Shown piece after piece: positions 677-63,309 of a stretch of DNA of 64,000 nt. The stretch lies in NCBI GenBank assembly GCA_030704615.1, contig CM060731.1, positions 38,502,001 to 38,566,000 on the forward strand, written 5' to 3'. Position 1 is the first letter of the stretch. Each line of letters begins with the position of its first letter. The translations under genes were made by a program, and so were the position numbers. The stretch is from Takakia lepidozioides (taxonomy: Eukaryota; Plantae; Bryophyta). Under the pieces are notes generated by a model. It had not been told where the DNA came from, did no database searches, and saw nothing but the letters and a program-made list of their open reading frames with translations.

Positions 677-3600
677 ATTAACATTGTAGAACAGTGAGAT
701 AAAAAGACGTTGTGCTTTGATACAGTCTCCACGACCCGATAGCTTCAATAGGCCCTGCCCGTGCATGCCCAAATTTGCATTTGACTGGATCAACGACCCT
801 TCCTGATACAGCCACCCCACATCACCCTTCACTTTCACATACAGCAGCTGTTCAAGGTCTTTTGGCATTTTACTCAGTTAGGCCCTGTTAGTATGAGGTA
901 TTTCACACACAACATGAAATTGGGTGGATGTCGCAAATAGACCTGCCTATCTGGCCCCAAATTACAGTTTCACTTTGCCAGCTTCTTCAACAAATAACCA
1001 CTCTCTGTCTCACAGTGGTCCATGATACACACAACAACAAATTTCCTGGCCTCACAATGTGGGTTGGCACAAGCGATTCCAGCAGCAATCTTTGCTAGAG
1101 AACAACCATACACGAAGAGCTTAAACCATGGTCGGGTTGGGGAGTCACACACCCTCAACACCACCAGATTGCTCGTCTCAATAGAGGATGTAGCCACCAT
1201 GAAGTCATCTGGATTTCCTTCTATTTGAATCACAGAGTTCCACATCAGCAGCATCTTTACCGTGAGCTTTAAAGCCCCGTATACCTGTGCACCCACAGCC
1301 AGGTGACCTTCAACTCTCTCTCTTTGTTCTTTCACACACAACATGTCTGGTTGAAGCTGCTTCCCAAGTATATTTATCTAACAACACCCAATCACTACCC
1401 CACTCAACACTACCAAGTTTAGTACCATGAAAACAGATATGAGTTCACAGTATTGATAAATAGACCTGCAGCGTGCCGCCTGTCCACAAAAGCCTAACAA
1501 CAGCGCATCTCCATACAAACCTTTTGTAGAACCAAAAGAAAAAAGAAACAAAGAAAGCCAATTGCAGACTTGTACTATAGAGAGCCAATTGCAGAATGCA
1601 CGACATTTGAACCATGGTGAAAGGTGCCTAAGGACCTTCATAGTAGAGTCACTCATAAGAACCTCCTCCGCTAACAACTCAAACTCTGAAGTGGAGTACT
1701 CTGCAAGGCCAAAGATGAGTATGCCCCCAGACCCCAAGGTAATCATTGAGCGAACCTGAGAATCCCATGCAAGACCGACAACCACAAGAAATGTTAGATC
1801 ACCGTCTAATCACTTTCCCAACAGTTAATCGGTTGGTATTGTCAGGTATATAGTGTCTCGCAAGACTCCCAATTTCTTTCGTGTCGTGGCCTGAGACATG
1901 TCAATCATCTGATCACATAGAAAACAAGAAAATTGAGCTGTCATTAGTTGGGTTTCCTACTCAGCTTGACCAGCTGCAGTAACTATTACAAATTGAGACA
2001 TGGGGACAGTTTTTATTAAAACAGGCTGCTGAGCTGTGCGTTCTCTCTTTACTTTCCATACGGTACCTCAACTTTTATCACCAAGCTAGGAAATCCGGCA
2101 AGGGATGAAACCAATGTTTAAGTCTGCAGAGCCACAATAAACTGCAAATAGAGGTATGAGCCTCATAAGATAATCAGGGTGACAAGTAGGACAGTGGAAA
2201 TTATACTACCAATTTGGTGCAATTTGTCTCTTCCTATTTTATGTAATGCTCCCTACCTTTCCTGCTGCCTACACTAAACCCAACACGAGCCAAGTAACCA
2301 GAAGTTCACAAAACCAAGGCAGCAGACCTTTGTAGCCGCCACATGGATATCTCAGTATGCACTGCCTAACCATGTGCATTGTTATGTACCAGAAAAGATA
2401 ATTCTTACACAGAGTATGTTTTGCTGTCGCCGTGATCCAGGCCGAAGACGGGATAACCTTGTTTGAGCACAAACAAGCTGGCATGTAAAGAGGAAAAGGA
2501 GGGTGAAAAATAAAATCCACAATTTCATCACACTGACCTGCACTCTGCTCCACAGCAGTGGAACCACCACACTTGCACAGCTCTCCACATACACGTTTGC
2601 CCACAACGGGCGGTTGGGAAACTCTAGTAATAACGTATCAGTTTGTGTCGTCTTGTTACTATTAGACACATACAAGGACTGTGGCAGAACTTCAAATCGT
2701 GTTCCTGCAGCTCCAGTGTTTTCTGGACACCCTAAGCTATCCCCACCTGCCAGGCAATGACAGCACAAAATGTGATTTGAGCAAATGTGGGGCAATCTGA
2801 TGCACTTAAACAGCTCTCAATAGTCCCTGTTTCTGCAAATGTATTGAGCCTTTTCTAGGTTAGTACAACTTCAGTTACTGGAGCCCAATGTACAGATATA
2901 GGCCATATGTATCCACAAAACATATAACCATGTGCAGACTAAATGAGAGATTTCGAAACATAACTGAATAGTTCTAGAAGCTTTCTCATTGATTTTGTAT
3001 GCCTATGATAAACCCAGTTCATCCACAGAACCCAAAGGGTAAGAGTAAGAGGGGAGGGAAAGAGAGACTGGGAGAGATGAGCCCTAACCATGGGTTGACA
3101 CCGTCACACCATCAAGCCTCATGCATTCAATGGAGATGCGGCCCCCTCCGCCACCCCCACGCCCAGTCCCTCCAGAGGCAGAGATTACACCATTTCCTTT
3201 GCTGCAATCAAGTCCATTTCCGCCACTGGGTTCAGCAGGATTGGCTTGTACAAATATGTGACCCCTCTATCACTCAATAGTCTTTCAATAATCACTGAGG
3301 TCACCAATTGCGCTCATTACCTGTTCGACATGATACAAGAGCTAATGTTTGGGAGTACGGATCAGACCACAGGGCTAATGCGTGGATTCTTTCCATAGAA
3401 CAATATGTGGAACCCAAAAGTACGTTTCTCTATAGTAACCCACATAGTCCCTGCACCTCTGTTCACCAACTTTCAAACTCTTGAGGCTGGGCCCAAAGCC
3501 CTGGCCCTGGTGGGGTCTGATTGCTAGGCAGCTTACACACAGCAGATCGATGCTTGTGGCTTTCTAGAGGATATCTGGAAAGCCCAAACTAATTGTTTAC

Positions 3601-4830
3601 AACAAGGTAAGTCACGCTACTGAAGTAACCACCTGACAAAGGTAGTGCCTGTTTCCAATGTTTCCGTCCAAACTGGGCGCAGGTTCTATGGCCACAAGGC
3701 TACGGCAAACAAAGCCATATAAGTACATTCTATAAAAACCCATCTGCTGACCTACACTGATACTTCGACTCAGCATGGGTGCAATATGGCTGATGAAACG
3801 TTGAAAACATCAGTGCATACCTGACATACACATGCATACTAGAGAAACACCCACAACCAAGTTTTACTCTTCCCCTCCTTCAAGGTGTACACTGTTGAGA
3901 TGGGCCCCTAATTGTGAGCATGGACATCTGCTAAGCAAATGCCACAATGAGAGAAACTCACATCCGAGATGCTTTTACATAGATGCTGCCTCCAGAACCA
4001 CCACCACCCTCGTTTCCAACAGAACCGCCATTGGCCTCTATAGTACCATTAAGCACCAAGTTCCCTTCCACTGTCACAGCCACACGGCCCCCTCCCCTTC
4101 CTCCAAAGTCTTCTGTTCTATTTGTGCTCCCCCCTTTACTCCCATAGCTCCAAGGTTTGGCAAGGGCCGCCCAGGAATACACATCCCCACCCCAGGTGTC
4201 GTGCTGGTCTTTGCCATCATCTTGCACACAAGAAGCTCCTCGGCCACCATGGCCCCCACCCCCTCCATCAGTCCCCATGGGTGTCCCACTCGTTTGAGGA
4301 GGTGGGGTTCCTGCCAATGCAGTGGTGTTGAAAGTGGAGCCATCGCTAATGCTCACATTAGCCGCTTCCATTAACAGAGTTCCACTTACAATTGACGAAT
4401 TTTGACCCACATTCAGATTCCCAGTCAACAATACAGTCAAAGTGCACCCATCAACCATGCAAGTGATTGAGACATTGGGTAGAATCTCTAGGGTTCCTGC
4501 TCCGACAATCACTGAATCATTAGTCAAAGAGACTGACTGATTGAGCACACAGATGGTATCAAAAGATCCTAACCCACCTAAATCAGTCTCACAGGAGAGA
4601 GATTGGTTCACTAGATTGTGGAGGCAAATAGGTTCAAGGACAGGTTGGGACAGTTCGCAACTGGGGGGCTTTCTGGGAGGTCTCTGTGAGATCCCTGGTG
4701 CATTGGTAGGGCTTGGCGGAGTCCATAGGGCAATTGATTTGTCTAGAAGGCTACATGATAGAAGAGGAAAAAGGTGAAACAGTGAGAGTAAGATCCTAAA
4801 TACGCGGCCTTGGAAGCGGAGCACCATCAT
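677..4830 (-). CDS. Large Gly-rich secreted/membrane protein of the plant At5g11700/At4g32920-like family; 5' part of a multi-exon gene that continues off the left edge
   Basis: GT-AG exons join in frame: 4830-3962, 3201-3089, 2746-2538, 1755-1636, 1284-1153, 802-677. Hydrophobic signal-like N-terminus, SCETDLGGLGSFDTIC, GGGHGGRGASC, GGGGSGGSI, GCPENTGAAGT, VVVPLLWSRVQV, SEFELLAEEVLMSDS, IQSNANLGMHGQGLL. Confidence 0.85.
3440..3630. repeat. Dispersed repeat, copy 1 (intronic); related to 24855-25050
   Basis: ACATAGTCCCT(G/A)CACCTCTGTTCACCAACT...ATCTGGAAAGCC...GGTAAGTC occurs at both loci in the same orientation. Confidence 0.7.
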
Positions 4831-6844
4831 CCTGCAGGTTTACCCTCATAGTCAAGCCCTCGATGCAAATCCTTCTGGAGCACCTAGAGATATTTCACAA
4901 CCAAACCCCCCCACAGCGAGGAGATCTTCTCAAACACCGGCCAAGTTTAGGGTCCCCTCGCGCTTGGTAGTTCAAAAGTGGCACGGCTCTATCCATCCTT
5001 CGAAACACTGCATGGCTTGAGCATGTTGAGGCTGTTCAATGCCAACCAGCAACACTGGGAGGGAGAGGAAACTGGCTCCCAATTACTCTCCCAGATCCGT
5101 AAGTCCCACGTCTAAAAATTGTTCTGAGCTCAAACGCCAAAGTCCTGGAGAACCTGCTGCAAGTACATTTGATAGGAGAAGAAGATTACCTGGGAGATGA
5201 ATGCATGAGACGATTCTAAGGATTATACTTTTGCTTAAATCTCTGAGCTGCATGAAGAGTTGAGATTGGGGCATAATGGAAATTTAGCTTCTACATACAT
5301 AACCTGGTTCTCCATTCAAACAGAAATACCATGCACCTTGACCTATCTTGACTCGAAGCAAAAGGCATTTCCAAAATCAACCCTAAACTTTAAAGAAACC
5401 TCTATTACTCTATCTAGAATTTCCTCAACTCATGAAAAAAGAGCCTCAAAACATTGGAAGTGCCCAAGAAGTCCCTCATACCTCCTTTGCAAATCCGCTG
5501 ACATCTACTTGTGCCCCCTGATGAAGACCCTGTAATGACCATTTCTCACTCCGTAGAAAGCGCTCGATAATATCACGACATACAACTCCCAGCTTAACCT
5601 CTTCACTCCGTCCATCCAAGAGGCAACCAATTTGCAGCTAAGACAAGACCTCCGTCTTGCATAAAACACATGTCGAACTACGGACCACCACCTGCAGCGT
5701 GTGACCTCCGATTCACGACCTGCGCATTGTCCATCCCCATCCAATAAATCCCTTTCCCCTCAGCTGCAGCTGATTGCATAATCCTTCACACAATTGCAAA
5801 ACCCCGACTAAGTTAGCGATGCAGCAAGCTCATGAACCCTTCCTTCCTCTCCCTCTTCTCCACTGTTCACCTCAATCTCTTCACCACGGATGCCTCCCAC
5901 GTCGCAGACAGAGAGAGACAGAGAGAGCAAGAGCGATCCGAGCAAAGATTGCAAGCAACGGGAGCTGCCCTCCCTTTGCATCGCCCGTTACCGTTGGGCT
6001 GACGGAAAGCTGACCGCGCGGTCCCAGCGCGGTCCCTCTACGTATTCTGAAACGCCCGTAAATACGTATATTCAAGTGGGATGGATGAACTATGCCTACC
6101 TACTTTGGACGAAAACGTGCGCTTCCAGATGATAACCAGGATGAGCTTGGGCTGAGTTATAGACATGGCAAGAACGAGGTGACGCTTTTCCATGCTGTCA
6201 AGTTTTCATTGGCTTAAAAACTGTAAAAACATATTTTCGTGTCGGAGGTGACGTGGCTGACATGCCCGTATCGCAACGGATGTAGCAGTTTATCTCATCC
6301 AATAGGCTTTCCACCGATCAACTGACGTACTACGTTCATCGAGGCATCTTTCTGGGGAACATTTATAACGGGGAGCAGGTGTGACGTGGAGGGAAGACAG
6401 GGACACAAGTGTTGTGTCACGTTGCGGGCGGTGCATGTGCCACGTGGAGAACCCCAGGTTTTCCAGGGTGACCTGGCAATCTTCAGGCCTCTGCTTACTG
6501 TCGTTCACTGCGGGTGACCACGTCACCCGGCCCGTTGACAATTTCTTATTTTCTCGATAATCGGGAACGATAAGATATATGAGCGCTTTTGAATAATTAT
6601 GTTCTAGAAACCGGATGAGGGCGTGAATGATGTAGCAGTTTTCATTCGTATCTGGCGAGGCCCACCATTCATTCCTCGTAACGGAAACGGAAAGTGATTC
6701 TGGGTCGTTAGTCGTTAACAGCGCGTGCCCAATATTTGGACACTTGCGATGTGGGTTGTGGATAATGCAGCACGTGTCCCGAAGGAAGAATCGGTCAACG
6801 GTACGGGCAGCGCAGCCAAATTATCTTGCCATGCTCAGGTTCTG

Positions 6845-6865
6845 TAACCCTAACCCTAACCCTAA
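6845..6865. repeat. (TAACCC)3.5 telomere-like microsatellite
   Basis: taaccctaaccctaaccctaa. Confidence 0.7.
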
Positions 6866-8602: not shown

Positions 8603-9470
8603 TGTAGGCTTCACCGAGATCAGTGCTCACGTGAGCATGCTCACCTTGTGCTCACATGATACCAACCCCCCACTTATCAAAAAAATTGAACCCGCCAGCT
8701 TGCCACCTACACTGCCATCTACGAAAGCCCAAAAAGGCCAGAACAACAGCCATGGCAAAGCCCGGGACAATACCCTAGTCCGGGCCTAAGATTCCGTACG
8801 TCGTGCGCATGCATATCGCTACACAACTACATCGCTGTCCAAAACCACACAACACATGTGCACGCCACACACTAGTATATTACTAGTCCAACCACTAGTC
8901 CAACCACTAGGCTACAACTAGTCAGTCACTAGGCTGCCACTATACTGCCCACTATGGCAGTCACTAGTCCACACAATGATAAAGAAGAAGAATACAAGCA
9001 CAAGCTCATGCGAGCTCACAAAGCTGAAGCATAAACTCATGCATATATAAACTCATCACTCAAATACAAGTCAAGCCAAGTGCATCCCACGCCATGGGAA
9101 ATCCACACAACAGCGCCATAGCTAGGCGCGGTGAGGCTCAACTCGAGAAAGATGAGCCTCCCACGCTTGCCGTGAAGATAACCACTCCAGGGCCTAAATC
9201 TGCCTTGACCCCTGGATTGACACTTGGGCCAATCCCAAATGTCAATATGTAAAAGCTAGCTATTTCCTAGCTAGTTTCACACTAGTGGTAAAATAACTTG
9301 ACAGCTGTCGTGCGCATACATATCGTTACACAACTACATCGTTGTCCAAAACCACACAACACATGTGCACGCCACACACTAGTATATCACTAGTCCATCA
9401 CTAGTCCAACCACTAGGCTACAACTAGTCAGTCACTAGGTTGCCCACTATGGCAGTCACTAGTCCACACA
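8603..9470 (-). repeat. Candidate 3' LTR containing an internal ~170 bp direct repeat (8800-8977 and 9307-9472)
   Basis: Begins TG right after the PPT on the minus strand. The duplicated block GTCGTGCGCAT...CACTAGTCCACACAAT is visible directly. The left end (TGTAGG at 8603) is a guess. Confidence 0.55.
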
Positions 9471-9730
9471 ATCGCCCCCCTAGCTGGTGCTTAGGTCCCT
9501 CTAAATTCAGGTAGCCACAAGATGTGATAGTTACCATAGCCTCACTAAGTCCTCCACCACTGTCCCTACTACACTCAAACTCGATAGATCAAGAGGCCGG
9601 GTGCAAGAGTTGCCCCATCGTTAGTCGCCGTCTTGCAATCTGTGAACTTGAGCTTGGGATCTCGTGTATTGACTCCTATGAGTTTGGCCTCTCATGTCTT
9701 GTTAGCTGCCTCTAGTCATGTCCACTGCCA

Positions 9731-12700
9731 TTATCCCAAGCAGTGTGGACACAACCAATCTCCGTCAGGAACCTTCTCAAGAGGTGGTGTCAAGCATCCC
9801 ATATGTCAACCCCTTGAGCATCGATCACACACCAGCATGGTGACTGCCCCTTTGGCAGACCCACAGAGCATGCACCTCAAACCTGCAGGTACCATTGCCA
9901 AGTTTGGGTCAACTCTGCCATCGACATTGGGAAGGTGACATGACGCACAATTACGCACATGGTCCTTCCAAGTCATGTCATCCCGACCCTCCAAGATCAG
10001 GACTCCTAAGGGCAACACCTCTCGAACCCTCAGAATAACACGCCTTGCAGTGACATCCAGGGTCGTAGGAGCAGTCTGCTGCAAATAAACATAGTCACCA
10101 GGGCTAAACCTCCGAACCCCAGGACGATATCCTCCACCACATATAGTGGCATACCTCAACGTATCACGGTGTTGTGCAATGGCAAGGTTCTCAAAAGCCA
10201 TGGGCATGACTTTCTTGAACAACTCTGCACGCTGATCACATGCACGTACCCACACGTCCGGATCATCAAGATTAAGGACTTGAGCAGTGTCCCTACGAAT
10301 GGCTGCAGGCAAATCCGGCTCTCGGCCAAAGAGAAAGAAATATGGTGAGAAAGATGCAAGTGATGCTTGTTTGCTGAACCTGCAGCCCATGGCTAACCAA
10401 GGCACCTGAAGATCCCAATCTCCTAGGTGTCCTTTCTGCAAGCCATACTTGCGCAAACCCCTCTTCACCGTTTGAACAACTCTCTCTGTCAAGCCATCGG
10501 CCTCAGGATGATCCCGAGAAGTGGTGCGGTGGTCTATCAAGGCTTTATCACACAAAGCCTGAAACTCCCCCAAGAACTCTCTCCCTTGGTCCGTGAGTAC
10601 CTCAGCTGGAGCACCGAATCGGCTAAGCACACGATCCAAGAATGCATACGCAGCCCCCTCACTAGCCTTGTCAGGCAATGAAACCACTCAATCCACTTGG
10701 AGAAGTGTTCCACCATCACCAACACATATCTGTGGTGGCGCATAGTTAGTGGCAACGGTCCTGCGAAGTCAAGACTCCACCTGTAGCCCAATCCCATGAT
10801 TGGTAAAGGATGCAACTGTGGTGTAGGGGCGTTGAATGAAGCATGCACCCTGTCACACACCATGCACCTAGCCACGAACTGTTGCACCTTTGTATGCATA
10901 CCACGCCACCAATACTACCCCTGCAGTAAACTGTGAGTGCGTCGCACTCCAAAATGCCCCAACTCCTCATGGGCATGCCGCACTAACCGTGTACGATATG
11001 TGGGGTGAGGCACAATCCTCACCCGACCATCTTCCCATACTCGGAGCAGGTGTATCCCCTCCCACTTGAACCTCTTGGTTCGTTGTAGGATCCGATCCCT
11101 CTCATTGGCAGTCACAGTGGCTGCCATGTCTCCAGTACGGAGGTAGTCCAACACAGCCGAATCCTCATGTATATCTCTAGTACCACCTGGCTCATCACTA
11201 GCCTCAGGGTCCTCAGACACTCCGTCTACAGTCATCCCTGTTGTAGGTCCAACCTGACCTCCCAGAGATCTTGAGTTCTCATCTGAATCAAAGACCTCTC
11301 CATGTCACTGTATCTATAGGGTCTCCGAAAGATTGGCGTGTCAGTGGCCAACTCAATATGGATCTCTTGACCCTTCAGTGCTCCCAAGTCCTTCAAACTG
11401 AAGGCAAAACAATTCATGTAAGCCCTCAGGAACCGCCGTATATGTCATCTCTCTCCTCCGGTGACAATGGGTCCAATGTCAGGCTCCCAATTGTCCTCCG
11501 TAACTACAACCTTAAGTCCAGTGGGCTTAGAGGTAGAGGACGCATCCAGTGGTTGCTATGTTGCAACCTCTTGAGCAGTACTCCATACCTGCTCAGTCAA
11601 TGACAAGGCCTCATCTTGCCCCATCATCTCATCCTCGAGGACTTCCTCAACCTGAGAAAAATCCCCAGCCTCATCCATCACCGCCACCTTGGCGGCACTC
11701 CCTCTGAACCTCGAGCACCTCCCACGTGTGCCATGGATGCCTACACCCCGTGATCCTCACATGCTCGCCCCCACTCACTGCCTGTACCGTCTCGGTAGGC
11801 AGAGAGACCAGCGAGGGAAGTGCACTCCGCACTCTGCATTGCTCAGCCATAGCCAAGCTGATAATGCAGGTCAAGCAATTGAGATCCATTGCTTGCCCCA
11901 ACACCTGACGACGTGCTGCTTCAGAAAGAGATGGCACCGCCATGGTACCAGTGATAAAACCCATTGCCCGCTCACGCTCGTCAGCATTAGGCTCCACTAA
12001 CTGCTGCAACTGAGCATCCCACAGGAGGCCAGGCCCACAATCCCGGAAAGCATGCGATCCTGGGAAGCTGAGCGGTGTAGGTAATGCTGCTCGTGGTTGA
12101 CCCACCTTGTTGACCACTGCCAAAGGCGAACGGTCATCGTGTCTCATACACTGAGACTGCCTCCTTGTCTCCAGAATGCTATCCACTGTGAGATGTGTTG
12201 GCCGCTGCACCCCATCAAATGCACGCTTGAGCAGTGCGGGTGGCATCAAGTTAGTCCACCATAGCCGTGGACGATGAGCTCGTGACCCCACTGTAGCTGC
12301 ATCTAACAACACTGCTGACCCAAGCCACGACCGGACTTGATGCACACTGGCCATCATTCTGGCCCGAGAATCGCCCATCAGTGGCACATTCTCCAAGATG
12401 TATGCTGGAGATACAACTTGATGAAGCTACAAGTAGCGCAAAACCCACACCATTTTCCAAAACAGACCCGACCTCAAGTCTCGCAATCCATTGTCATGCC
12501 CGGCTGATGAATGCCCTTGGCAGGGCCAACCTGCCACTACCAGATCAATGGAGCCAACCCGCTCCAAATCTTGCGCCCCCAATAACGAAATGTCTGCTGG
12601 CAAGGCCTGCTGATATCCACGAACTGTAGCCGCCGGCAACAACTCAGGGTACCGCTGCACCAACTGAGCAACATGGCAAAGTGAAACGCATCGTGCAGTC

Positions 12701-15663
12701 TCATCCCTCTCCACATACATGTGATGTCGAACTCGTACACCTGCCTGTAACAAAGCAGCCAATCTGGTGCTGATCCCGCCAAACAAGTCCAGAAGAGAAA
12801 TGTCTTCATCCGGATACTGCCACACAATAGGTATGGTGTCCAATGGAGACAACTGAGGTGGTCCTGGTGCAATCCCCGCACTCTCCTCCTCTCCTGATGG
12901 TACAAAAACCTCTACCCATGTTTGTTGCACCCGTCAATCAGCAATTCCTTGCTCGTGCCCCACAATGGAGTCTGAGCAACCATGGCAGGCAACTCCGCCA
13001 TATCATACATGTCATCATGTTCTCCTGGAGGTATGTCATTCTCTGAATGAGCGTTTCCCTCAAGCAACTCTCCAGGCCAAGTCACTGCAGCTGTGAATGC
13101 TGCTAGTGTTGGCATCTTGCCCTGCTGGGCAACCGCAACTCCTCCTATAAACGTCACAGGGAGCTGCACACGTCGGCCCTCCCCTGACTGCCATCCAGGC
13201 CTATAGGAAGCTGACTCCTCCCAAAAATCTAGGGTGAAGCCCATGGGGTACAACATTGCCCCACCAACCAGGACATCGTACAAGACCGCGTCTGTCACAA
13301 TGGCCTTGGCTCGCATCACTGAGCCATCTGTAGGGTGGTCTGGCCGTAGTCTGATAATCAACTCACGCCGTGTCATGCCCCGAGCCTGCTCAGATCTTCC
13401 CAGAGACGTCTGTATCTGGAAAGGACAAGGCTCCATATCCGCCTCCGTGAAGCCCAAGCCTGCAATAGCAGCTCTGCCCAACATCAATGGCTGAGCTCCT
13501 GAGTCCAACAAGACCCGCAGTGGCCAGTACCTCTTGCCTGTCGGTCCTCTCAAACAGAAAATGTCATCCTGGTTGTCTAACATGTCAACTCCAGGTGTCA
13601 CCATGGCGCGCTCAATGGCTGGCCTAGCTGGCAGCTCCATCAACCTGGCAGCTGCAGTTTGTCATGGCGCCGTCGTGGCAGTCTTGACCCTCAAATCCGA
13701 GGATCCCTCCGGCACTACACCTCCCACTATCTCCGCAGAATATGAAGTAACCTCCCCACTCTCACAGAGTGTAGCTGCCAGCCTGAACACCTCAGCTGGT
13801 CTTACCTCCGGCGTCGCAATCATGGTAGCCGAGAACAATGGAGCCTGACACACAGATGTGGTCGCTCCCAGCAGTACACTAGCTGCCGTAGCCTTGGCAA
13901 CACTAGGTAGTGGTGCTACCCGTGTAGCTCTCCCCAATGGCGTAGTAACCTCCGCCTCGGTAACAGTCGGGCGAGAACTAGGTGCCATGGATGGCGTCGA
14001 CACTGTCTCCGCCAATGTGAATGACTGAGGGAGCCTAGCCTGACGGCTTGCCTCCCCACGCTGTGGATCCAACTCCACCTCTGCACCTCATGGCTCAGGA
14101 ACTCGTGCTGCTCCTCGAGTCACGGCTGCAATAAACTCCACCTGCACTAGTGGTAGTGCTGCTCCGCACATGAATCCCATGCCTCCCATATCTCCTCCCT
14201 CAGGAACAGAAGGTGGACCATCCGGCCTTGGAGCCGGTACCACCTGAGCTGTAGTCATGGCAGCGAGCCTCTACTCTAGTTGCTAAAGCCGGTTGGCCAT
14301 GCCTTGGTCAACACCCTGACCTCCGCGTCCTTAGCCATATTGAGCTTGCCCTTGGCCTACACCCCGTGCCTGGCCACCTCGTCCTCTTTGGGCTGCTCCC
14401 CCTCGCCCCCAGCCACCATTGTTTCCTTGGAACTGGCCTGGGCGCAACTCTGGATACAAACCATAATACTGGGCCTCTCCATGCCCGTGCTTGCCACAAT
14501 GCCCACACTGCAACTATGCAGGCTGTGCATGCGCCGGCCCTTTGCCTCCCTCTGGGCAATCCTTCTTGACATGGGGTCCAGCACACCACATCCGCCCGTT
14601 GTTGGCCAGCAAATGAAGGGAGAGACCCTTGCATCTGAGGTCCTCTCTGCCCTTCCCTGAGCTTCACCTGAGCCCCTTTGTTGCCTTGAGCACGTTGAGG
14701 TAGTGGTTGGCTAGGAGCACCACTACCCCGTGGTGTCTCCTTAGCAAATCCCACCATGACCACTCGTTCCTCCACCATGTTGAGCTCTATCCGCTCTGCT
14801 AGCAAAAACACATTTACTAAGGTAGGTTGGGCCGCTTGTAGGAGAGTTGCATCCCGCACCCTTCTCCTCAGCTCCTTGTCCAATATCCCATACCAGAATT
14901 GGACTGCCTGAGCTTCTGTAACCCCTTGGGTTACATTTATCAAGCGCCTCATGCGAGTGAAAGCCTCCCTCAAGCTCTCAGTAGGCTTCCGTTGGAACTC
15001 TTGCAAGCTCCGCAAGTTCTCTGTCCTCACCCCTTGGTAGTTCCCTCTCAACTCTTCGAAGAACTCCACAACAGGGTTAAAGGCAGGCACGGGTACTGGT
15101 GCTGGTGCGGTAGTGGCTTGGATGGACGTCGTAGCTACGGTACCACCAGTCCTACTAGTCCCACTGCTGCTTGCTGAAGCTGCCGGTGTAGCGGCAGGTG
15201 TAGCCACTGCCCTCGTGACTCTAGTGCCCCTAGTGATGGAGACATAGTCGGGTGACCGGTACATCCTCCACTCCTCGATCTCAACCTCATGCCCCCGCCT
15301 GAACTCATTGTAATCATCCATAGGCGGCCCCTCAAGGTGCTGAAACAGCCCTTTCCATGCCATGAAAGGCGTAAATAGTTGTGGATTGCGCATTTGCTGC
15401 AAATCACACCAACTATCAAACTCTTGGATCAAATCATCCAACTCGATGGTGCCCACCGCCCCAGAGTACCTTCGTGGCCCCTTGGTAGCTCCATACATCT
15501 CCTCCATTGTGTCCCACAACAATGGCAAAGAAACAACTTGCACCGCCGGTATGAGTCATCTTGATTCACAATCCGAATCAGAACCTTCCGTAGAAGACAC
15601 AGGAGGTGAAGGTGGCAACAGGTTCTCTACCCGGTTACCTTGTGGAGAGGGGGTTAGGGACAT
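9731..15663 (-). pseudogene. gag-pol polyprotein pseudogene with frameshifts and stops; RT core and RNase H deleted
   Basis: Gag 15543-14308; knuckle CGHCGKHGH; protease VLLDSGA (~13500); RT start IELATDTPIFRRPYRYS (11417-11260) jumps straight to the pre-integrase region; integrase HEELGH..CMVC, WSLDFAGP, VLTDQGREF, DGLTER; PHD CMLC..CDRC..HMGC..WLCPHC ending at TAA 9731. Confidence 0.9.
11800..12810 (-). pseudogene. C5 cytosine DNA methyltransferase domain inside pol, between protease and RT
   Basis: Motif I LLDLFGGI, II YVERD, IV VVAGWPCQGHS (catalytic PC), VI ENV, VIII AHRPRLWWTN, IX/X ERERAMGF..RRQVLGQAMD. One frameshift near 12430. Confidence 0.9.
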
Positions 15664-16379
15664 GTTCATGACCGGTTGAGTGTCAACACGGAGGTGCCAC
15701 TAGTTGCTAGGGACAGTGCTGGTTCGAGCACTAGCGATACTAGTGGGTACACGAGACGAGGTGTGCGCGGCTTATGGTTTGGAATACTAAGTTCCTAACA
15801 TAGCCTACACCTATACCTGCATCCACCGCAAGCACTCCTATGGTTGGCTGGTCATCACCTCCAACCTCACCACAGGAGAAACAATGATGGTCTGGCTGGT
15901 CATTACCCCAGCCTCACCATCGACAGCATGCTCTAGGACTGGTCGGTGATCAAATCCGGACCAATCACCTATAAAAACAAGCGCCCACACAAAACTAGCA
16001 TGGCGCACAGTCAAGCATGCAGGTATGGAGGGGATCCAAACACAAGAAATCAGAACGACAACTCCCCCACACCAAAAACAACTCCACGGTGTTGCTCCTA
16101 CAAGGACACCCCAGCCCAAACCCGGACTGACTCTTGCCTCCACCTACGGGAAGGTCTTGGCCTAATGAGAGGGTGGAAACTACGAGGAAGAGAAGCTAAA
16201 GCAATGCCTAACCCCAGCATGCCCTCATCCCAACACTCTTCCTCTCCTCTCTTCTCTCACTTGCATGACCATGGGAGTATCATGAAGATACTCCTCAAAC
16301 CGCCCTCCACGAGCTTCAAAATTCGGCCTTCAAGACCACATGCCAGTCCTTAGGCAGTCCACCAATGCCTCCATGAGTC

Positions 16380-16880
16380 AACACAGGCCGTCCACATGTC
16401 AACACGGGCCACCACAGACCAGCACAAGCCCACACAGCTCACTGGTCACAGCCGTCACAGCCCTACACAGGTCACAGGGTCACAGGGTCACAGCCCCACA
16501 GGCCGCAGCCTGTCACAGCCCCCACGGCCACAGGTCACAGCCTATCACAACCCATCACAACCCCAAAGGCCATAGGCACAGCCTGTCACAGCCCCTCACA
16601 GCCCCTCACAGCCCCACAGGCCACAGGGCACAGCCTGTCCCAGCCCCACAGGCCACATGGCACAACTTGTCATAGGGGTCACAGCCCCAAAGGCCACAAC
16701 CCCTCACAGCCCGTCACAGCCCCACAGGCCACAGGCCACAGCCTGTCACAGCCCCTCATAGCCCATCACAGCCCCACAGGCCACAGGGCACAGCCTGTCA
16801 CAGCCCCACAGGCCACTGGGCACAGCCTATCACAGGCCGCCATAGCCTGTCACATCCCGTCACAGCCCCACAGGCCACTC
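16380..16880. repeat. CACAGCC/CACAGG minisatellite in the retrotransposon 5' region
   Basis: Dozens of cacagcc(c/t), cacagg and gtcacag units. Confidence 0.9.
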
Positions 16881-16966
16881 ATGACAGTTTAGCCATTTCT
16901 CCAAGGGGTTTAGCCACGAAGCTAGGGTTTGTGTCTCTTGGACTCTAGGCTTCTTTGCACCGAGCT

Positions 16967-17300
16967 ATGGCGGTTGTGAAGAAATCAGCAAGGTATTCTT
17001 GCTCTTTCGGCTCCCACACATCACCAATAGTCCATTGGGCTTTTGTTTTCAAGCTTTAGAGAACTAGAAGAGAAGGTAAGGGGCTGATCTGCTCTTATGT
17101 GAGATAGTGAACAGTACCCGGGATCCGTCCTTCTGTCCTCTCCAGGATACACTCCTCACTCTCCTCAGTATGCAGTCCTTGTAAATTCTCCAAAATATGT
17201 CCCTGCAGATTCTCAGTACGTCCCTGGAGATTCTCCAACATATACCCCTAGAGAGTACTCCCCTGAAACCTTGAGGATGATTCGAGAGAGCCTTCTGTAG
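16967..17300 (+). pseudogene. Small ORF with Tyr-x-Pro-x-Ser-Pro repeats resembling the RNA Pol II CTD
   Basis: The frame 17103-17300 reads DSEQYPGSVLLSSPGYTPHSPQYAVLVNSPKYVPADSQYVPGDSPTYTPREYSPETLRMIRESLL*. It is preceded by ATG-TGA at 17097 and a possible first exon MAVVKKSA (16967). Not in the ORF track. Confidence 0.45.
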
Positions 17301-20604: not shown

Positions 20605-20929
20605 CTGTACCATCTCGGTAGGCAGAGAGACCGTCAAAGGAAGTGCACTCCGCACTCTACGTTGCTCAGCCATAGCCAAACTGATAATCCAGGTCAAGCA
20701 ATTGAGATCCATTGCTTGCCCCAACACCTGACGACGTGATGCCTCAGAAAGAGAAGGCACCGCCGTGGTCCCAGTGGAAAATCCCATAGCCCGCTCTCGC
20801 TCGTCAGCATTAGGCTCCACTAACTGTTGCAACTGAGCATCCCACAGGAGGCCAGGTCCACCATCCCGAAAAGCATGGGATCCTGGGAAGCTGAGCAGTG
20901 TAGGTAATGCTGCTCGTGGTTGACCCACC
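20605..20929 (-). repeat. 325-bp fragment of the Gypsy DNMT C-terminus (paralog of 11782-12106)
   Basis: Colinear, ungapped, highly similar DNA encoding GQPRAALPTLLSFPGSHAF...ERERAMGF...RRQVLGQAMD. Confidence 0.92.
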
Positions 20930-21168
20930 CTGAAAAAAACCATCTCATACCAAACTTGCACCTGATGTGGCAGTAGGCTTAGGTGGCTCTTTTGACGGAT
21001 ATTTTGACGGTCATTTTGACTGGTTAGTTCAACTACTATTTTGACTAAGTAATCTTAATGGTCTTTCTACGGTACTTATTACACCTCGGCGCCACCATGT
21101 TTGCCACATGTATGTCAAAGGGAATGCCACGTAATAGAGTCCATCAGAATTATTAAATAAATAATAGA
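20930..21168 (-). mobile_element. Possible Helitron-like 5' terminus
   Basis: The minus strand reads A|TCTATTATTTATTTAAT...ACGTGGC, with TTTTGACGG repeats. No matching 3' CTRR end was identified. Confidence 0.3.
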
Positions 21169-21764: not shown

Positions 21765-24310
21765 TCACGCGTGTTTAATAAACTTTTCAGACCATAAGGT
21801 GGCACTTCCCTGCGTGTCACCCAATGTGGTATGATTAGGGGTAACAGAGTAGTCCGGGTACGGCAACACAACCTCTGAAATCATGACCGATTTCACATGG
21901 ATATGGTAATAGTTGTCTGGCACATTTGCTTTCGGAAATCCAGTAATATATCCCACACAACCTGTCTCTATACTCCATGCTGACATGATCAAAGGTGGAA
22001 CAGTGCCATACCTAGTTGATAGCAGGTTCTGCATGGTCAACATGGATGTGGTAGGACGATGTCACAAAACTACCTTTGTAGGTTGTCAATCCTGCAGCTA
22101 CACAGCGATACATAGGGGGTGTATTGATCCAGCATCAGACAAGGAAACAAAAGAGGACAAAGGAAGTACTTACACTGTGCGGATTTTGTTGGTCACCCCA
22201 TGGTTCAGTTACATCCACTGTGGTTGTAGTCTGATTGATAGCACATATTGTGCTTTCCCTGCCCATTGAACGCTTCACTGGTTTCACCATCTGCATATTG
22301 AATGACACATGATCAAAAAATGAGAATAGCACGAATGACACACATTGTGAAGTAGCATTAACAATACAAATCCACCCACGCGCCCAAGCATTGAATCTTT
22401 TGCTCTCACCTTTCTTTGATTATGCTTTGTTGTTGCATCGGGAGGCAAAGTCGTTGGAACTCTGGCAGCAGGAAGCCCTGGTTCGGATGCCTTTGCAGAT
22501 TGTTGTGATCCACTATCCATGGCTGCAGTATTGAACAAGTAGTTGGGCTGCCCATATCTGTATGGGTGCCCTGACACATACTCAGGGATGTGTGCAGCCT
22601 TGGATACACCCTCTAACCAAGGCAGTAATTCTTCATAAGCCTCTTGCAGTTTGGCTGATCCCTCAACTTCCATGGATACGGGAAGATGCAATTATTTGCA
22701 GGGTTGGGTAAGCAAGTGAGTGGGGAATCGTCCACCAGCAAAGTATTGGTTGGATTGTAATGGCTGTAGTCCTTCCAAAACTTACATAAGTTCTTGTACA
22801 TGACAGTTTTAGAAGGATTGAGAGGGTCCACCATTCCCACAGGTTGGTCACAATAGTCTTGGTGAAGCACCATCTTTGGTTGCTTCCCAGGAAACAATGC
22901 TTTCACAATTGGAAGGACATTACTCAATGACATGGAAGACCATACACCTACATCAAAAATCTGAAGGCATCGGTCCAGAAACTCCTGACACCCAGGTCTG
23001 GAGGTGACAGTGGGCTCTAGGTGTTCCCTTGTTCGTAGTCTGCTCTCACATAACAATCCATTCAAGTCAAGTATAAGGATGTGTTTCTGCCTCTCAGTTG
23101 CCGAAGGGCAATTACCAACAACTTGTACATGATTATCATGTACAAAAGACACACCTTTCTGTGGGGCACTCTGCAAATTCATGGAGACCTCACAGGCATA
23201 TTGAGAGGGTAGTACATATGCCGGGAGTGCTACTGGTGTAGGGGACAACAAAACGGATGAACACTTTGCAGTTGCCTCAACAATATGGGGGGATGGATTG
23301 AGTTCACCTTCAGACCAACCCTCCATGTCATCATCCCCCTCCATTTCTGAAAGCCCAAACAATGAGCCTATTGTGTTTGGCTTTGGTGGCGGTGAAGAAA
23401 CTGCCTTGAACAGGTTGAGTGGTGAGCCCATAACATGAGAAATAGTCTCATTTGTTGTGTGTGGCGCAAAGGTGGTGCATGGTGGACCTGTAGGTTCCGA
23501 ATCTGGCACATTCATGCCAAGTTTAGCTGCGAGCGCAATGTTGAATGCAGCTGAGGCTGGAATCCTGCAAGGTTTCAGCAGTACCATGCATGTTACCACC
23601 TTCACTCTGTTGGGGCTGGACTGCTGTCTCCCACCCCACAGGATGATGCGGAGCAAATGCATCCTCGGTCTGTTTCAGAATGCCTTTCCCTTTCAGGGTA
23701 TTAGGTGTACCTGGAGATGTTGGATAAAGAGGTGGCCGCGGTGCAGTGAAGCTCGAAGGTGCCAGCAGTTGTACTCCACTGTAGTTGGATCCTGAAGGTT
23801 GGTGGCCACCATACTGGACCTGCCCCTGGTGTGGTCTTGCAGGGCTGGTAGGATAGAGGGAGGAAGTAGGTTGGTTGTACATAGGCCAAGGAGGATACAT
23901 ACTATGGGGATGCATTCCATAATGGTGGTAAATGGAATACCCACCTTGACTAGGATCATGCATTGGAGCGCCTGCAGGTGGAGCAAAAGAATTGTAATTC
24001 TGGCACTGAGAATCATTGTTTGGAGGTTGATAGTGAGGATACGGCATGTGCCCATGCAGATTATACCCTGACATGGCAGGATACTGTGGGTACATAAGCG
24101 GATACGAGGGAGGAGCCGATACTGGTGGATACAAGGGAGCTGGAACATCAGTCTGTGGAGTGGGCGGGGCTGGTTTTTTGTAAGGGGGAACAACCGCGCC
24201 ACTCGTCACAGCAGTTGGCGCAATAGTTGGTGCACACTTTGCTGGAGTAAGAAACTTATGCTCGTTCGCATCCTTCCCTGCAATTCCCTTCCTTTTTTTT
24301 TACTAAACTC
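21765..24310 (-). pseudogene. Pro/Tyr-rich region + FCP1/NIF-type HAD domain + C-terminal Tnp1/En-Spm-like domain (HAD copy 1)
   Basis: KHILILDLNGLLC, SRPGCQEFLDRC, VGVWSS, YKNL, NTLLVDDSP, NP (22613-23100). The last exon VVLPYPD...TTLGDTQGSATLW resembles the Transposase_23/TnpA C-terminus. Confidence 0.7.
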
Positions 24311-28493: not shown

Positions 28494-31400
28494 ATGATCC
28501 CTCCTACTGCCCATCGATTGCAAAGGCGGACACAAGCAGAACATGACGATGACAGATTGTGGAAACTAGAGGAAGCGCGAGCAAGAAGACTGGGTCTTCG
28601 GAAAATTCTATGTCCATGCAATGCCTGTCATGGTGGGAACTGGCAAACCATTGGCCGGGCTAAGCGTCATCTGCTTTTGAACTTGCGAGCGGTGCATATC
28701 TATGGATTCTCTTCCCTTAACCCTGATGCATACTTTGAAATTATAAGAAACAGTTCAAATTCCTGGTAGCGGGATTGTTGTAAGGTGTAGAGTATTGTAC
28801 ATGCCCGTTTTCCTATTGCCACGTGCCTGTATTATGGCACGTTCCACATCCACCATTTCCAACCCTAAACTCCTCATCTTATTGTGGATTGACATGTGGA
28901 CTGATATGCTTATAAGCAGGAAAACTCTGGAGACGAACATGAGGGGTTTAGAACGGAAACCAGCCCTGCATGTGGTCCTGATACCTTGGATCGTAATCTT
29001 GACATGCTTAGAATGCTCCGGGAGACATTCGCAACTACATATAATGGGGTGCAAACTGGTGCACATGAGGAACCGGGAGATGGAACACAGGGCCAATGGG
29101 ACACAGATGGAGTGCCAGAGCAGACTGATGGTGGACTGAAGAGCGATGTTGATCGTGGTGCAGCGAGTGCCTTACGTTTTGAGCAGGAGGCATCCAGGGC
29201 TTTGTATGTAGGGAGTTCTTCCTCTCGATTGTCTGCTACCTTACTGCTGTTAAATGCTTGTCAAACCCATGGTGTGTCAAACACCTTTGTCGATGAACTC
29301 CTTACATTGTTAGGAAGACAACTGTTGCCAGCAGACAATTGCCTGCCAAAGTCCCACTATGAGGCAAAACAACTCATAATGGAATCCGGGCTTCATTACG
29401 AGAGTATACATGCATGTCCGAAAGGTTGTGTGTTGTTCAGAAGGGAGCTTCAAAATTTGGAGGTTTGTCCAAAATGTCAGGCATGTCGTTATGTGGTGGG
29501 TACGAAGACACCAGTACCTCGTAAGGTCCTTCGACATTTCCCTATCATTCCAAGGCTGCTTCGAATGTATAAAGTCAAATCCATCTCAGAGTTATTGTCA
29601 TGGCACTTTAAGAATCGAAGTTTGGATGGCTTGGTTAGGCACCCAACAGACAGCAAGGCTTGGGCCCACATTGACCAAAAATGGCCTGAGTTTGCAGCGG
29701 ACCCCAGAAATCTGCGATTGGGTCTCGCATGGGATGGTGTCAATCCTTACAGTGATAAATCAAACAAATGGTCAACTTGGCCTGTCATGTTGGTAAACTA
29801 TAATCTTCCACCATGGCTGTGTACTAAGCCATTTTCACGATGTTGGCTTTATTGATTCCTGGACCACAATCTGTGGGAAATGACAATGCAGATGTTTATT
29901 TGCAGCCCTTGTGGATGAGCTGAAATTGTTGTGGGAAGTTGGTGTGGAGGCATTGGATGGAAGTAGCCTAGTGGGGCAACAGTCATTTCGCATGAGGGCC
30001 ATCTTGATGTGGTCAATCCACGACTTTCCAGCTTATGGGTTGCTAGCAGGATGCGCACACGGGGGATACAAGGCCTGCCCAGCTTGCGGCCCTAATGTTG
30101 ATTCCAGGTACTCCAAGGCATGCAAAAAAGTTTTGTATCTTGGTCATAGGAGATACTTGCCTGCTATTCATCCCTATAGGAATAACTCGTCCCACTTTAA
30201 TGGACATGTGGAACATAGAGCAGCTCCTATGGTGGTCACTGCAAGTGAGCAATTTGACCGGGCTACAACCAGAGAGTTTGTATCTCGCAATGGGAGGGGC
30301 TGAGGGGGGAACTGGACCCTTCAAAGGAACATGGCATGAAACGGGTCACTGTTTGAACCGATTGCCATACTGGAAAGACTTACTCATCCGATACACACTG
30401 GATATGATGCATTGTGAAAAAAATTTGTGTGAGAATGTGCTGAGAACCATTCTTGGGGAGAAGGACACAGCCACATCTAGGAAGGATATGGAACTCAATG
30501 TCATTCGTGAACACTTGTGGTTGAGACCCCTCCCTCTCACCCGAACAAGTTGGTCAAGCCTTTGGCCCCATATGTTCTTACTGAAGATGAGAAGGTGCTG
30601 TTTTTGGAAACATTGGCTGCAGTAAAGGCCCCCACAGGTTATGCTGCCACATTCCAGAAACATGTGGCTGACAATAAACTGTCTACAATGAAACCCATGA
30701 CTACCATGTAATGATGCAGCAGATTTTACCTCTTTGCATTCGAGGGGTATTGGGAAAGGGTCCACGGATGGCAATTATGAGGCTTTCTCGAGGCTTCCAA
30801 AAAGTGTGTGCAAAGATCATTAATCCAGCTGAGGTACCGGCCCTTAAAAGAAGATGTTGCAATCACTATGTGTCTGCTGAGAAAGAATTCCCTCCGTTAT
30901 TTTTTGATATCATGACTCACTTGCTTGTACACCTTATGGACGAATTGGAGGTGTGTGGTCCCGTGTCTAGCCGTTGGGAATGTATCCTATGGAACGGTAT
31001 ATGAAGTACATTAAAAGGCTATGTAAGGATTATGAGCCGACCTGAAGGGAGCATGGGCGGAAGGGTATGCTTTGGATGAGGCCCTAGGGTTTCTAACTGA
31101 GTATATGGCTGAATTTCATGCTACAAGCCGAAGGGTGTGGGACTCCAATGAAGAAGACTCAGTTAGTGGGGAGGTGGTTGAAGGATTGGGAACTGTACGA
31201 GTCCTCACCATTCAAGAACGAGACAGTGCACACGAGTATATTTTGCACAACACAGATTGCATGAAACCATTCCTTGAGTAAGTATGTTGCTTATCATATC
31301 CTGTGTGTTTCATTTCTGCCAATGGTATAAGCTGTAATCCTAATTTGCAATTCTCATTTGGACAGGGCCTATGAAGAGGAGATGGCACTCATAGAAGCAT

Positions 31401-32419: not shown

Positions 32420-33378
32420 ACAGTCATGAAGCTCTGGCATGAATACTTTTCTGACCCTAATCAATGGTGGCCCAATTGTGGGAAAAAGGTGAATGCATGT
32501 TGGATTATAGAGAGTAGCAGATGCAATTGAGCATAGGAACTAGTGTGAGAAGTTGAGTTGGGTGTTTCCTAGAACAAATATAGGCTGTTATTGTCAGTTG
32601 CTACCAGCAAGGCAAAGATGTATGCATGATTTGTGAGAGGCATGGATAGCTGAAGGAGCAGGGATAGAGTGTGGGTCCAGATTCATCCAAGAGGGCCACA
32701 TTTCAAGCACAACATTGCCTATGATTCCTTGTGGAAGGATTGGTACAAGAAACCTGCATGGGTAGATGGTCAACTGGAAGCCGCAGCTAGCAGCGGCACA
32801 ATTGTAAAATCGGGCGATGAGGGCACCTTCTTCAACACATTTCAGCCTGTTTTTCCCCCTTATCACAATCGGCCCTAAATTTCCATGTTGAATTCTGCAA
32901 GTTAGCTGGTGGTGGACACATGTATAGCAAATGTGGGAGCACTGAGGATGCGTGTTCAACACTATGGCTGAACGAGATTGTGCGTTTGCAGTGCGTGTGC
33001 AAGTCTGGCAGCTTTGGATGCATCACCAAAAGTTGGCAGCTTTGGATGCATCACCAAAGTTGGAATTGTAACAGATGCGATCCAAATGTGGGGAACATCA
33101 AGGGTATGCCAAATGCCTCGTATGCCAAATGTAGGAGCATCAAGGGCAAACCTGGCAGCTCTGGAAAAAGGGAAGAGGTCCATGGCTTCATTGTCAAAGC
33201 TGGAATTCTACCTGATGTGATTCTGAACAATGCCCTCGTGGACATGTATGCCAAATGTGGGAGCATCAAGGATGCGAAGGCAGTTTTCCATCACTATGGC
33301 TCTTGGAGTGATTTTGACATGTACCAGCGAAGGGAGAAAGTGGGGCCCTCAGTAGACGAGTTGAAAAGCACTAGTTAA
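32420..33378 (+). pseudogene. Captured host fragments inside the CACTA: an OSB-type PDF motif and PLS-class PPR repeats
   Basis: KLWHEYFSDPNQWW (~32430) and PRGPHFKHNIAYDSLW..KPAWVDGQL (32669-32790); MYSKCGS, YAKCRSI, VHGFIVKAGILPDVILNNALVDMYAKCGSIKDAKAVF. Confidence 0.7.

Positions 33379-60958: not shown

Positions 60959-63309
<2,351 letters not shown>

Follow-up and report, generated by a model that had tools for sequence, protein, structure and literature searches.

The window, a stretch of 64,000 nucleotides of the Takakia lepidozioides genome, contains on its minus strand a Gypsy retrotransposon with the gene order gag, protease, DNMT3-like methyltransferase (DNMT), reverse transcriptase (RT), integrase, PHD finger. 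The element spans about 16,950 to 8,800; an earlier sequence-only reading placed it at 9731..13643, and missed the split terminal repeats and the stop codon described below. The 5' untranslated region (15508..16950) contains a tandem-repeat array at about 16,400-16,890, and the family sequence stops near 16,950, where the read depth drops (bin 16,876-17,192). The gag gene (14470..15507) starts with the ATG at 15507 and is 46% identical to relatives P0377 and P0048. Both of its CCHC knuckles (near 14583 and 14507) are damaged, a frameshift lies near 14,575, and its match to Pfam Retrotrans_gag (E 0.0033) is below the curated cutoff. The aspartic protease (13149..13560, LLDSGA at 13511-13494) is also below the cutoff of Pfam Asp_protease_2 (E 0.036); this region matches Klebsormidium P0436 at E 2e-14 (tblastn). 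Then follow the C5 cytosine methyltransferase domain (11851..12810), the conserved stop with its context TAG CAA CCA (11550..11558), a predicted readthrough site in frame with RT, and an N-terminal remnant of RT identified by tblastn (11258..11420, PIFRRPY at 11336). The integrase (10100..11217) has an HHCC zinc finger and a catalytic core with motifs at 10977-10475 and is 64-72% identical to relative P0393. It is broken by a stop at 10917-10915 and a frameshift near 10,687, and each piece is below the cutoffs of Pfam Integrase_H2C2 and rve. The integrase C-terminus is a PHD finger (9734..9880).

The terminal repeats are split. A polypurine tract (9472..9481), identical in loci L008, L015, L017 and L022, precedes the first copy of repeat B (9306..9471), and between this copy and the beginning of repeat A lies the dinucleotide GC; the same B/GC/A junction is present in L008, L019, L022 and L023. 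The first B copy is 90% identical to the second (8800..8977), which forms the 3' end of the element, where the depth climbs (bin 8,634-8,950). The 3' copy of A (8978..9303) is assigned because it lies between the two B copies, where L022 has it: blastn with repeat A of L022 gave no match in the window, and short common words are seen by eye only. The A-coding-B-A-B arrangement is complete in L022, L034 and L037, and the window has B-A-B without the 5' A, as no match of the 3' repeats was found there (blastn, word 7, E<1). A 4-bp target duplication is present in L022, and three of four positions match in L037; none was found for the window copy.

The window copy is dead. It has many stops and frameshifts, including internal stops in DNMT (12429-12427) and PHD (9808-9806), and lacks the 5' repeat. 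At about 11,258 the tblastn alignment with P0393 jumps from residue 95 to residue 535, and a deletion of about 440 residues has removed most of RT together with RNase H: only the first 60 or so residues of RT are left, and RNase H is entirely gone. Loose ends are seen at 11258 in runs X1, X5 and X6, and one contig of X12 continues for 1,500 more letters. The order protease-DNMT-RT given by the sequence-only reading is correct; the RT itself, however, is reduced to this remnant. The other features that it named were recovered, namely the DNMT motifs, all on the minus strand, the C4HC3 PHD finger after the integrase (9874-9740), and a related, non-identical fragment at 20605.

The DNMT domain contains motifs I, IV, VI, VIII, IX and X (DLFGG at 12789-12775, GWPCQG at 12531-12514, ENV at 12393, HRPRLWW with the RxR pattern at 12276, ERERAMGF at 11979, LGQAMDL at 11901). 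Pfam DNA_methylase scores E 4.5e-10 and Pfam PHD E 2.2e-12, both from translations with X at one internal stop each. The best PDB sequence matches of the domain are DNMT3A, and its predicted model (pLDDT 91.1), which matches DNMT3A/3B with E 4e-18 and TM 0.74/0.83, has the DNMT3 fold. The domain is intronless and DNMT3-related, and its catalytic residues are conserved; among near-complete relatives, motif IV is present in 37 of 39, VI in 39 of 39 and VIII in 38 of 39. Codon comparisons show the domain to be under purifying selection: three pairs of intact relatives give omega 0.095-0.12, and three pairs of decayed copies 0.31-0.37. The fragment at 20605..20932 (minus strand, 328 bp) is the DNMT C-terminus of another family member, 92% identical to 11782-12109; of the changes between the two over 108 codons, 13 are synonymous and 13 non-synonymous (omega 0.31).

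The family is abundant. In one run 102,329 contigs fall on 9.5 kb of the window, and the summed depth is 0.4-1.2 million along the element versus 1,000-6,000 in the flanks. Relatives are present in Marchantia, Calypogeia, Riccia, Sphagnum and charophytes, and the order PR-DNMT-RT-RH-INT is common to intact relatives and Klebsormidium P0436. In Marchantia, there are uninterrupted Gag-protease-DNMT frames. A scan of viral contigs found no relative of the element.

The spacer between DNMT and RT contains the motif TAR-CAR-YY in 25 of 30 comparable copies, that is, those with both domains visible (24 of 29 loci and the window); these 25 represent about six families, many rows being one peat-moss family or one insertion seen twice. 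The strict form CARYYA is found in the window, L018, L019, L023, L035, L036, L058 and L077. The peat-moss family has CAR-YYC/T, often with UAA. The second codon after the stop is CCA, CCC, CTA, TTA or TCA, encoding Pro, Leu or Ser and always starting with YY; comparisons between families find synonymous sites saturated or nearly so. The motif is missing in L027, where it is mutated, in L080, and in L034, L037 and L038, which form a second peat-bog lineage with a single open frame across the spacer. As controls, the background of the motif is 0.32 per kb, it accompanies 6 of 243 decay stops inside domains, and the strict CARYYA occurs upstream of RT in 0 of 22 type-B loci, a group set apart from the window/Klebsormidium clade in the Pol tree with support 100. 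Apart from this one stop codon, the DNMT-bearing frame of L019 and L023 continues in phase into a Pol frame of 1047 codons. No variant at a frequency of at least 5% was seen at window positions 11549-11560 in three sequencing runs. Five Marchantia frames of 1278-1281 aa, known as protein frames, end at the equivalent place without RT. The apparent excess of proteins ending after DNMT is biased by the 2,000-residue ceiling of the protein search, and thus the argument for the stop rests on the DNA loci. No RNA stem common to the copies was found after the stop (z from -0.2 to -4.3).

CAR YYA is the readthrough signal of TMV, with 6-10% readthrough in transgenic Arabidopsis according to the available part of PMC2754532. 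It is likely, given this pattern of conservation, that the stop between DNMT and RT is a readthrough site. The UAG-CAR-YY stop at this position is a new observation. It places DNMT and PHD in different translation products, and thus the proposal that they form one coupled module does not hold.

The best explanation overall, with a probability of about 0.6, is that the window contains a decayed copy of an abundant Gypsy family with a leaky stop, many DNMTs per particle and predicted cDNA methylation. Ribosomes would mostly halt after the methyltransferase and sometimes read through UAG-CAR-YY. DNMT would then be on the abundant Gag side, and RT-integrase-PHD would be the rare readthrough product. 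Each particle would contain many copies of the methyltransferase, which may methylate the new cDNA of the element, so that copies would arrive pre-marked. Taken separately, this last step, in which cDNA is methylated inside the particle or close to it, has slightly less than even odds. The broadest version seems unlikely: a bryophyte-wide clade in which the leaky stop loads Gag-level DNMT3, the cDNA is methylated before integration and the PHD-integrase places it, so that hundreds to thousands of copies would supply mosses and liverworts, including Marchantia, with de novo methylation from a source so far unrecognised.

Equally unlikely in our estimate, the enzyme may act elsewhere than on cDNA, either methylating existing copies or host DNA in the nucleus, in a self-limiting or host-manipulating way, or binding nucleic acid or acting as a structural component within the particle. 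Gag-level amounts would exceed the need of one cDNA per particle, and GWEC replaces GWPC in 40 of 90 type-B relatives. Moreover, CpG depletion does not set the element apart from host DNA and no special signature is seen, observed/expected ratios being 0.46-0.53 in the coding parts of the element and 0.43 in the host-gene region. On the other hand, the type-A clade retains its catalytic motifs under purifying selection. In retroelements, domains fused to Gag-protease are packaged alongside the cDNA, and the Gag-protease fusion would do the same with DNMT. Biochemical data on related enzymes (PMC5890265) fall on both sides. The Klebsormidium enzyme produced no methylation in yeast, a result its authors call inconclusive, and they list host-benefit and RNA roles; however, the related SymbioDIRS-Dnmt3 methylates CG de novo.

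Phylogenies with Klebsormidium, which the sequence-only reading proposed as a check, agree with the placement of the element in this lineage. The Pol tree, a fast search with SH-aLRT support only, joins the window, Riccia, Calypogeia, peat-moss loci, Coleochaete, Closterium and Klebsormidium at 95.5; in the DNMT tree, support for grouping the window clade with Klebsormidium is only 0.70. The claim of a multi-copy Gypsy DNMT family in a land plant, akin to that of Klebsormidium, is thus borne out by the depth, the Pol tree and the domain order. That the lineage persists in this plant is true as to its presence, but understates its spread. Nor is its descent simply vertical, as the peat-moss copies cluster with those of Marchantia or Calypogeia instead of the moss-like window. 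Horizontal transfer into or among bryophytes, instead of continuous inheritance from charophyte ancestors, is somewhat less probable than a role of DNMT outside cDNA. It would account for the disagreement of the element trees with the presumed host tree and for a DNMT 69-71% identical to liverwort copies next to a host gene about 50% identical to its moss and liverwort homologs. Likewise, no named protein of Physcomitrium, Ceratodon, hornworts or vascular plants is among the 65 and 120 matches listed. However, synonymous sites between the window and the peat-moss copies are saturated, the bryophyte group has a Coleochaete sequence as its nearest neighbour, Closterium and Klebsormidium being farther out, and several coexisting lineages could produce the same incongruence.

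Less probable still, the stop may be tight, and ribosomes may reach RT-integrase-PHD by reinitiating at a nearby AUG or translate it from a transcript that is separate or spliced; DNMT would be abundant here too. An ATG is found three codons after the stop in the peat-moss family and at codon +5 in L018 and L077, several database Pol frames begin with Met near the junction, and the annotation of a Coleochaete transcript gives it a complete frame with Pol only. However, the ATG is not conserved: L019 and L058 have none in the first 100 codons, the window has it at codon +47 and L035 at +48, and L017 has GTG. Moreover, reinitiation leaves the invariant CAR-YY unexplained. That a host DNMT was captured just once, or that the contig is algal, the outcomes that the sequence-only reading had named as fatal to it, can largely be dismissed, since the depth over DNMT is like that over the rest of the element, the domain order recurs in Marchantia, Calypogeia, Sphagnum and Klebsormidium, and the neighbouring DUF8003 gene has its best matches in moss and liverwort, with no algal name among the best 120 of 561. 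This gene groups with mosses at 91/88 (unstarred) in a tree without algal outgroup.

The PHD finger is also present in Klebsormidium P0447 and in distant type-B relatives. The nearest solved structures to the PHD of a relative are the fingers of CHD4, PHF12, PHF21A, KDM5 and UHRF1, types that fit readers of unmodified H3. H3K4me0 readers use an acidic residue ahead of the first PHD cysteine, and the bryophyte PHD has none there. The finger may tether the integrase to unmodified H3 tails, a tentative assignment that we rate a little below cDNA methylation. No chromodomain is present at the integrase C-terminus, where Pfam finds the PHD, and chromodomain-bearing matches lie outside the clade in the Pol tree. 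As far as the available parts of the sources go, PHD in retrotransposons is already known from REM1, and chromoviruses, REM1, CopiaMBD and EpiLTRs have a chromatin-reader domain on or near the integrase; chromoviruses and CopiaMBD differ in having a chromodomain or MBD. EpiLTRs carry DNMTs too, but theirs form the sister group of DNMT4 and are described as distinct from streptophyte Gypsy-DNMT3.

The closest known system is KnitGypsy-Dnmt3 of Klebsormidium nitens (de Mendoza et al. 2018, PMC5890265). It has a Gypsy Pol of the same clade, an intronless DNMT3-like domain under purifying selection, A-coding-B-A-B repeats and, in KFL_009030040, the same domain order. The window family differs in its land-plant host, far higher copy number and conserved stop, whereas the Klebsormidium DNMT shares a frame with RT and RNase H (authors' reply, PMC5890265 supplement). 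The element very probably belongs to the same lineage and inserts by an integrase-type mechanism (TG..CA ends, 4-bp duplication) despite its DIRS-like repeats. The DIRS order was rejected, as the integrase is of the rve type rather than a tyrosine recombinase and L022 has the 4-bp duplication. The literature searched contains no description of the KnitGypsy-Dnmt3 family outside algae, and the available part of PMC6317226, on plant REXdb lineages, names neither DNMT nor PHD.

The predicted signal resembles the tobamovirus UAG-CAR-YYA, as described in the accessible part of PMC2754532, in its amber stop, CAR-YYA context and frame with a downstream polymerase. Here, however, it is in a retrotransposon, after protease and DNMT rather than gag alone, and the peat-moss family has CAR-YYC. 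From the portions available of PMC5009743 and PMC2194720, in Moloney MuLV and Candida Tca2 too one in-frame stop yields high Gag-side and low Pol-side products; their stop, however, directly follows gag, and MuLV has a pseudoknot, whereas the bryophyte copies have no common stem.

Why retrotransposons carry an enzyme that normally silences them has been a question since 2018, in part because the known hosts are hard to manipulate. The position of the stop predicts the amount of DNMT relative to Gag and Pol, and constrains the role of the enzyme. According to PMC6338049, land plants, of which it names the tracheophytes, lack such elements. Many DNA_methylase gene models of Marchantia and Calypogeia are transposon frames, not host methyltransferases. 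Marchantia polymorpha, with uninterrupted frames, CRISPR tools and met1 mutants, makes the question of self-methylation testable.

A minus-strand Gypsy retrotransposon copy (about 16,950 to 8,800) with the order gag-protease-DNMT3-like-RT-integrase-PHD was found in the window. All DNMT and PHD motifs named in the sequence-only reading are present on this strand, and Pfam detects DNA_methylase (E 4.5e-10) and PHD (E 2.2e-12) domains, with X substituted at one stop in each. The solved structures closest in sequence to the methyltransferase are DNMT3A and DNMT3B (E 1.3e-5), and the same two lead the fold comparison of its predicted model (pLDDT 91.1; E 4.2e-18, TM 0.74/0.83). The copy is dead. 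Internal stops interrupt the DNMT, integrase and PHD, frameshifts occur near 14,575, 12,940, 11,697 and 10,687, and a deletion at about 11,258 removes some 440 residues of RT/RNase H. Family contigs run on past this deletion and are set apart from the window at 11,697 by a short indel. The window element is genuine but decayed, and it belongs to a variant branch of the Gypsy-DNMT3 lineage.

Where the window copy departs from the family, it mostly carries C-to-T and G-to-A changes: from window to contigs of sequencing run X1, 111 A>G and 119 T>C substitutions were counted, versus 35 C>T and 44 G>A. This excess would fit a methylated, ageing insertion. Family contigs link positions within 15617-15767 on opposite strands, which suggests an inversion of about 150 bp in this copy.

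The family is abundant in its host. In X1, possibly the run behind the assembly, 102,329 contigs were placed on 9.5 kb around the element. The summed depth, which is not a copy number, is 0.4-1.2 million at about 8,800-16,900 versus about 1,000-6,000 in the flanks, where single pieces have depth 68-86; it suggests that copies number in the hundreds or thousands. The depth bins of the DNMT (0.69-1.0 million) are similar to those of gag (0.63-1.0) and integrase (1.06-1.18), and thus the domain is present in most copies. The predicted multi-copy family is therefore supported, as opposed to a one-off capture.

Among the 65 proteins from the DNMT search, Calypogeia fissa comes first (71%), followed by Marchantia polymorpha (57-70% in long matches) and Sphagnum (46-54%). 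One related locus, L008, shares a stretch of 141 residues with a Sphagnum fallax protein at 100% identity. The Pol search added relatives in Riccia, Klebsormidium and Closterium, and a Coleochaete transcript is also a Pol relative. Proteins named as coming from vascular plants, hornworts, Physcomitrium or Ceratodon are absent from the 65 DNMT and 120 Pol matches listed, which is weak as evidence of absence. One Pol protein of the window's clade (P0508, cluster of P0390) is catalogued under an uncultured cyanobacterial bin, likely due to eukaryotic contamination.

The relatives fall into two layouts, PR-DNMT-RT-RH-INT-PHD (101 proteins), shared by the window and Klebsormidium KFL_009030040, and RT-RH-DNMT-INT-PHD (type B, 90 proteins). 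In a Pol tree from a fast RT+RH+INT search with 57 hand-picked rows, to which the window contributed a single integrase stretch, elements of bryophytes, Coleochaete, Closterium and Klebsormidium form one clade (SH-aLRT 95.5). Type B is monophyletic (SH-aLRT 100), and a few elements with the window's layout sit outside both clades. In the DNMT tree, the window, Calypogeia, Marchantia and peat-moss loci group with support 1.0, and the node that joins them to Klebsormidium has 0.70. Thus the proposed descent with Klebsormidium elements holds in the Pol tree and is weaker in the DNMT tree. Another possibility is horizontal spread of the family. Three loci from peat-bog contigs (L034, L037, L038) represent a second lineage with the window's order, split repeats and a stop-free DNMT-RT spacer; in the Pol tree it is closer to algal elements.

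The land-plant range of Gypsy-DNMT3 is new relative to the literature searched. In the parts seen, PMC6338049 states that land plants, tracheophytes being its example, do not have methylase-encoding transposons; bioRxiv 10.64898/2026.05.21.726589 names streptophyte Gypsy-DNMT3, the terms 'land plant' and 'bryophyt' being absent from the text available; and PMC12344493 gives the range as 'streptophytes and dinoflagellates', although bryophyte copies may be among those drawn in its trees. Neither the family in bryophytes nor the conserved stop discussed below is described in the accessible text of this literature (including PMC5009743, PMC6317226, PMC11982613, PMC10952607 and 10.1101/363937; subscription journals and Repbase lie outside this scope). 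The PHD reader on the integrase is present as proposed; however, it is not a novelty, as PHDs are reported to be widespread in retrotransposons (PMC6673714).

The window is of land-plant rather than algal origin, and its host is probably a moss. The exon of a DUF8003 host gene (3958-4839, minus strand) has its best matches in Physcomitrium, Marchantia and Ceratodon, with no algal names among the 120 of 561 matches listed, and groups with mosses (91/88, node unstarred, tree without an algal outgroup). A PPR fragment (32821-33378, plus) and an alpha-tubulin-like gene (60959-62252, minus) were also found. Four separate long frames containing an NIF/FCP1-like phosphatase domain (PF03031, E 1e-15 to 2e-5) lie within 27 kb amid DNA-transposon remnants, at 22616-23674 (minus), 34653-35270, 46744-47466 and 48941-49507 (all plus); possibly this phosphatase is carried by transposons. 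Other features are a CACTA-type Transposase_21 remnant (28905-29855, plus; E 9e-29), a run of long frames lacking annotation (42518-46173, plus), at whose end a weak SWIM zinc finger is seen, probably a Mutator-like element, and three tandem telomere-like CCCTAA units (6848-6865).

The terminal repeats have the arrangement A-coding-B-A-B in L022, L034 and L037, as in KnitGypsy-Dnmt3 of Klebsormidium nitens according to a figure legend of PMC5890265. In L022 the ends are TG..CA and the target site is duplicated over 4 bp (3 of 4 bases match in L037), which indicates integrase-type rather than DIRS-type insertion. The window copy retains the polypurine tract and B-A-B and has lost the 5' A. The internal B-A junction (9299-9313; also in L008, L019, L022 and L023) is a near-palindrome in which both end sequences are joined with two extra bases. 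It resembles an LTR-LTR circle junction.

A stop with the context TAG CAA CCA (11550-11558, minus) lies between DNMT and RT, in frame with RT. From 116 confirmed matches 80 loci were kept, 36 of them with the window's layout and 29 of these with visible RT. The pattern TAR-CAR-YY occurs in the spacer in the window and 24 of these 29 loci, and in 4 of the 7 where RT was not seen. It is missing from L027 (a single base changed), the second lineage L034/L037/L038, and L080. The background is 0.32 per kb, decay stops have the pattern in 6 of 243 cases, and strict CARYYA occurs in 0 of 22 type-B loci. The stop-positive loci represent about six families with synonymous sites near or at saturation. 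In three runs the window's family has no variant of at least 5% at 11549-11560, with variation at 28 of 361 places overall; the invariance therefore shows no more than that the family shares the stop. In L019 a Gag-PR-DNMT frame of 1369 codons runs up to the stop codon, which alone separates it from a Pol frame of 1047 codons; the L023 junction is the same. Five Marchantia frames, read as protein only, finish at the same place without RT (1278-1281 aa). According to the part of PMC2754532 seen, TMV readthrough needs CAR YYA and reaches 6-10% in transgenic Arabidopsis. One rival possibility is that the Pol side is made by reinitiation: an ATG soon follows the stop in some families and is absent close by in others.

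The type-B group is large (e.g. L039, L054, L061, L065, L070) and is not described in the portions of the literature examined. Its catalytic loop is GWEC in 40 of 90 proteins. Some type-B elements have a single in-frame stop (L060, 4141-4143; L061, 1397-1399; L062, 2796-2798, in locus coordinates), upstream of RT and in contexts different from the window's, so that the DNMT of these elements falls on the rare Pol side.

Like the anatomy of the element and its family, selection on the methyltransferase is shown: omega is 0.095-0.12, similar to the protease (0.10-0.13), with RT lower (0.03-0.05), and the catalytic motifs are kept in 37-39 of 39 near-complete relatives. Under readthrough, most ribosomes would make Gag-PR-DNMT and few would continue into RT-RH-INT-PHD. 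The protease would then release the domains inside the particle, the DNMT would methylate new cDNA, and the PHD may hold the integrase to chromatin. Two observations count against this mechanism: the Klebsormidium enzyme showed no activity in yeast, as reported in the part of PMC5890265 seen, and no distinctive CpG signature was found in the element. Alternatively, the DNMT may act on chromosomal DNA or have a non-catalytic role. Judged from sequence, the new feature is the conserved stop of apparently leaky type, by which the methyltransferase would be produced together with Gag; as a Pol-only frame of Coleochaete belongs to the same clade, this stop may be older than land plants.
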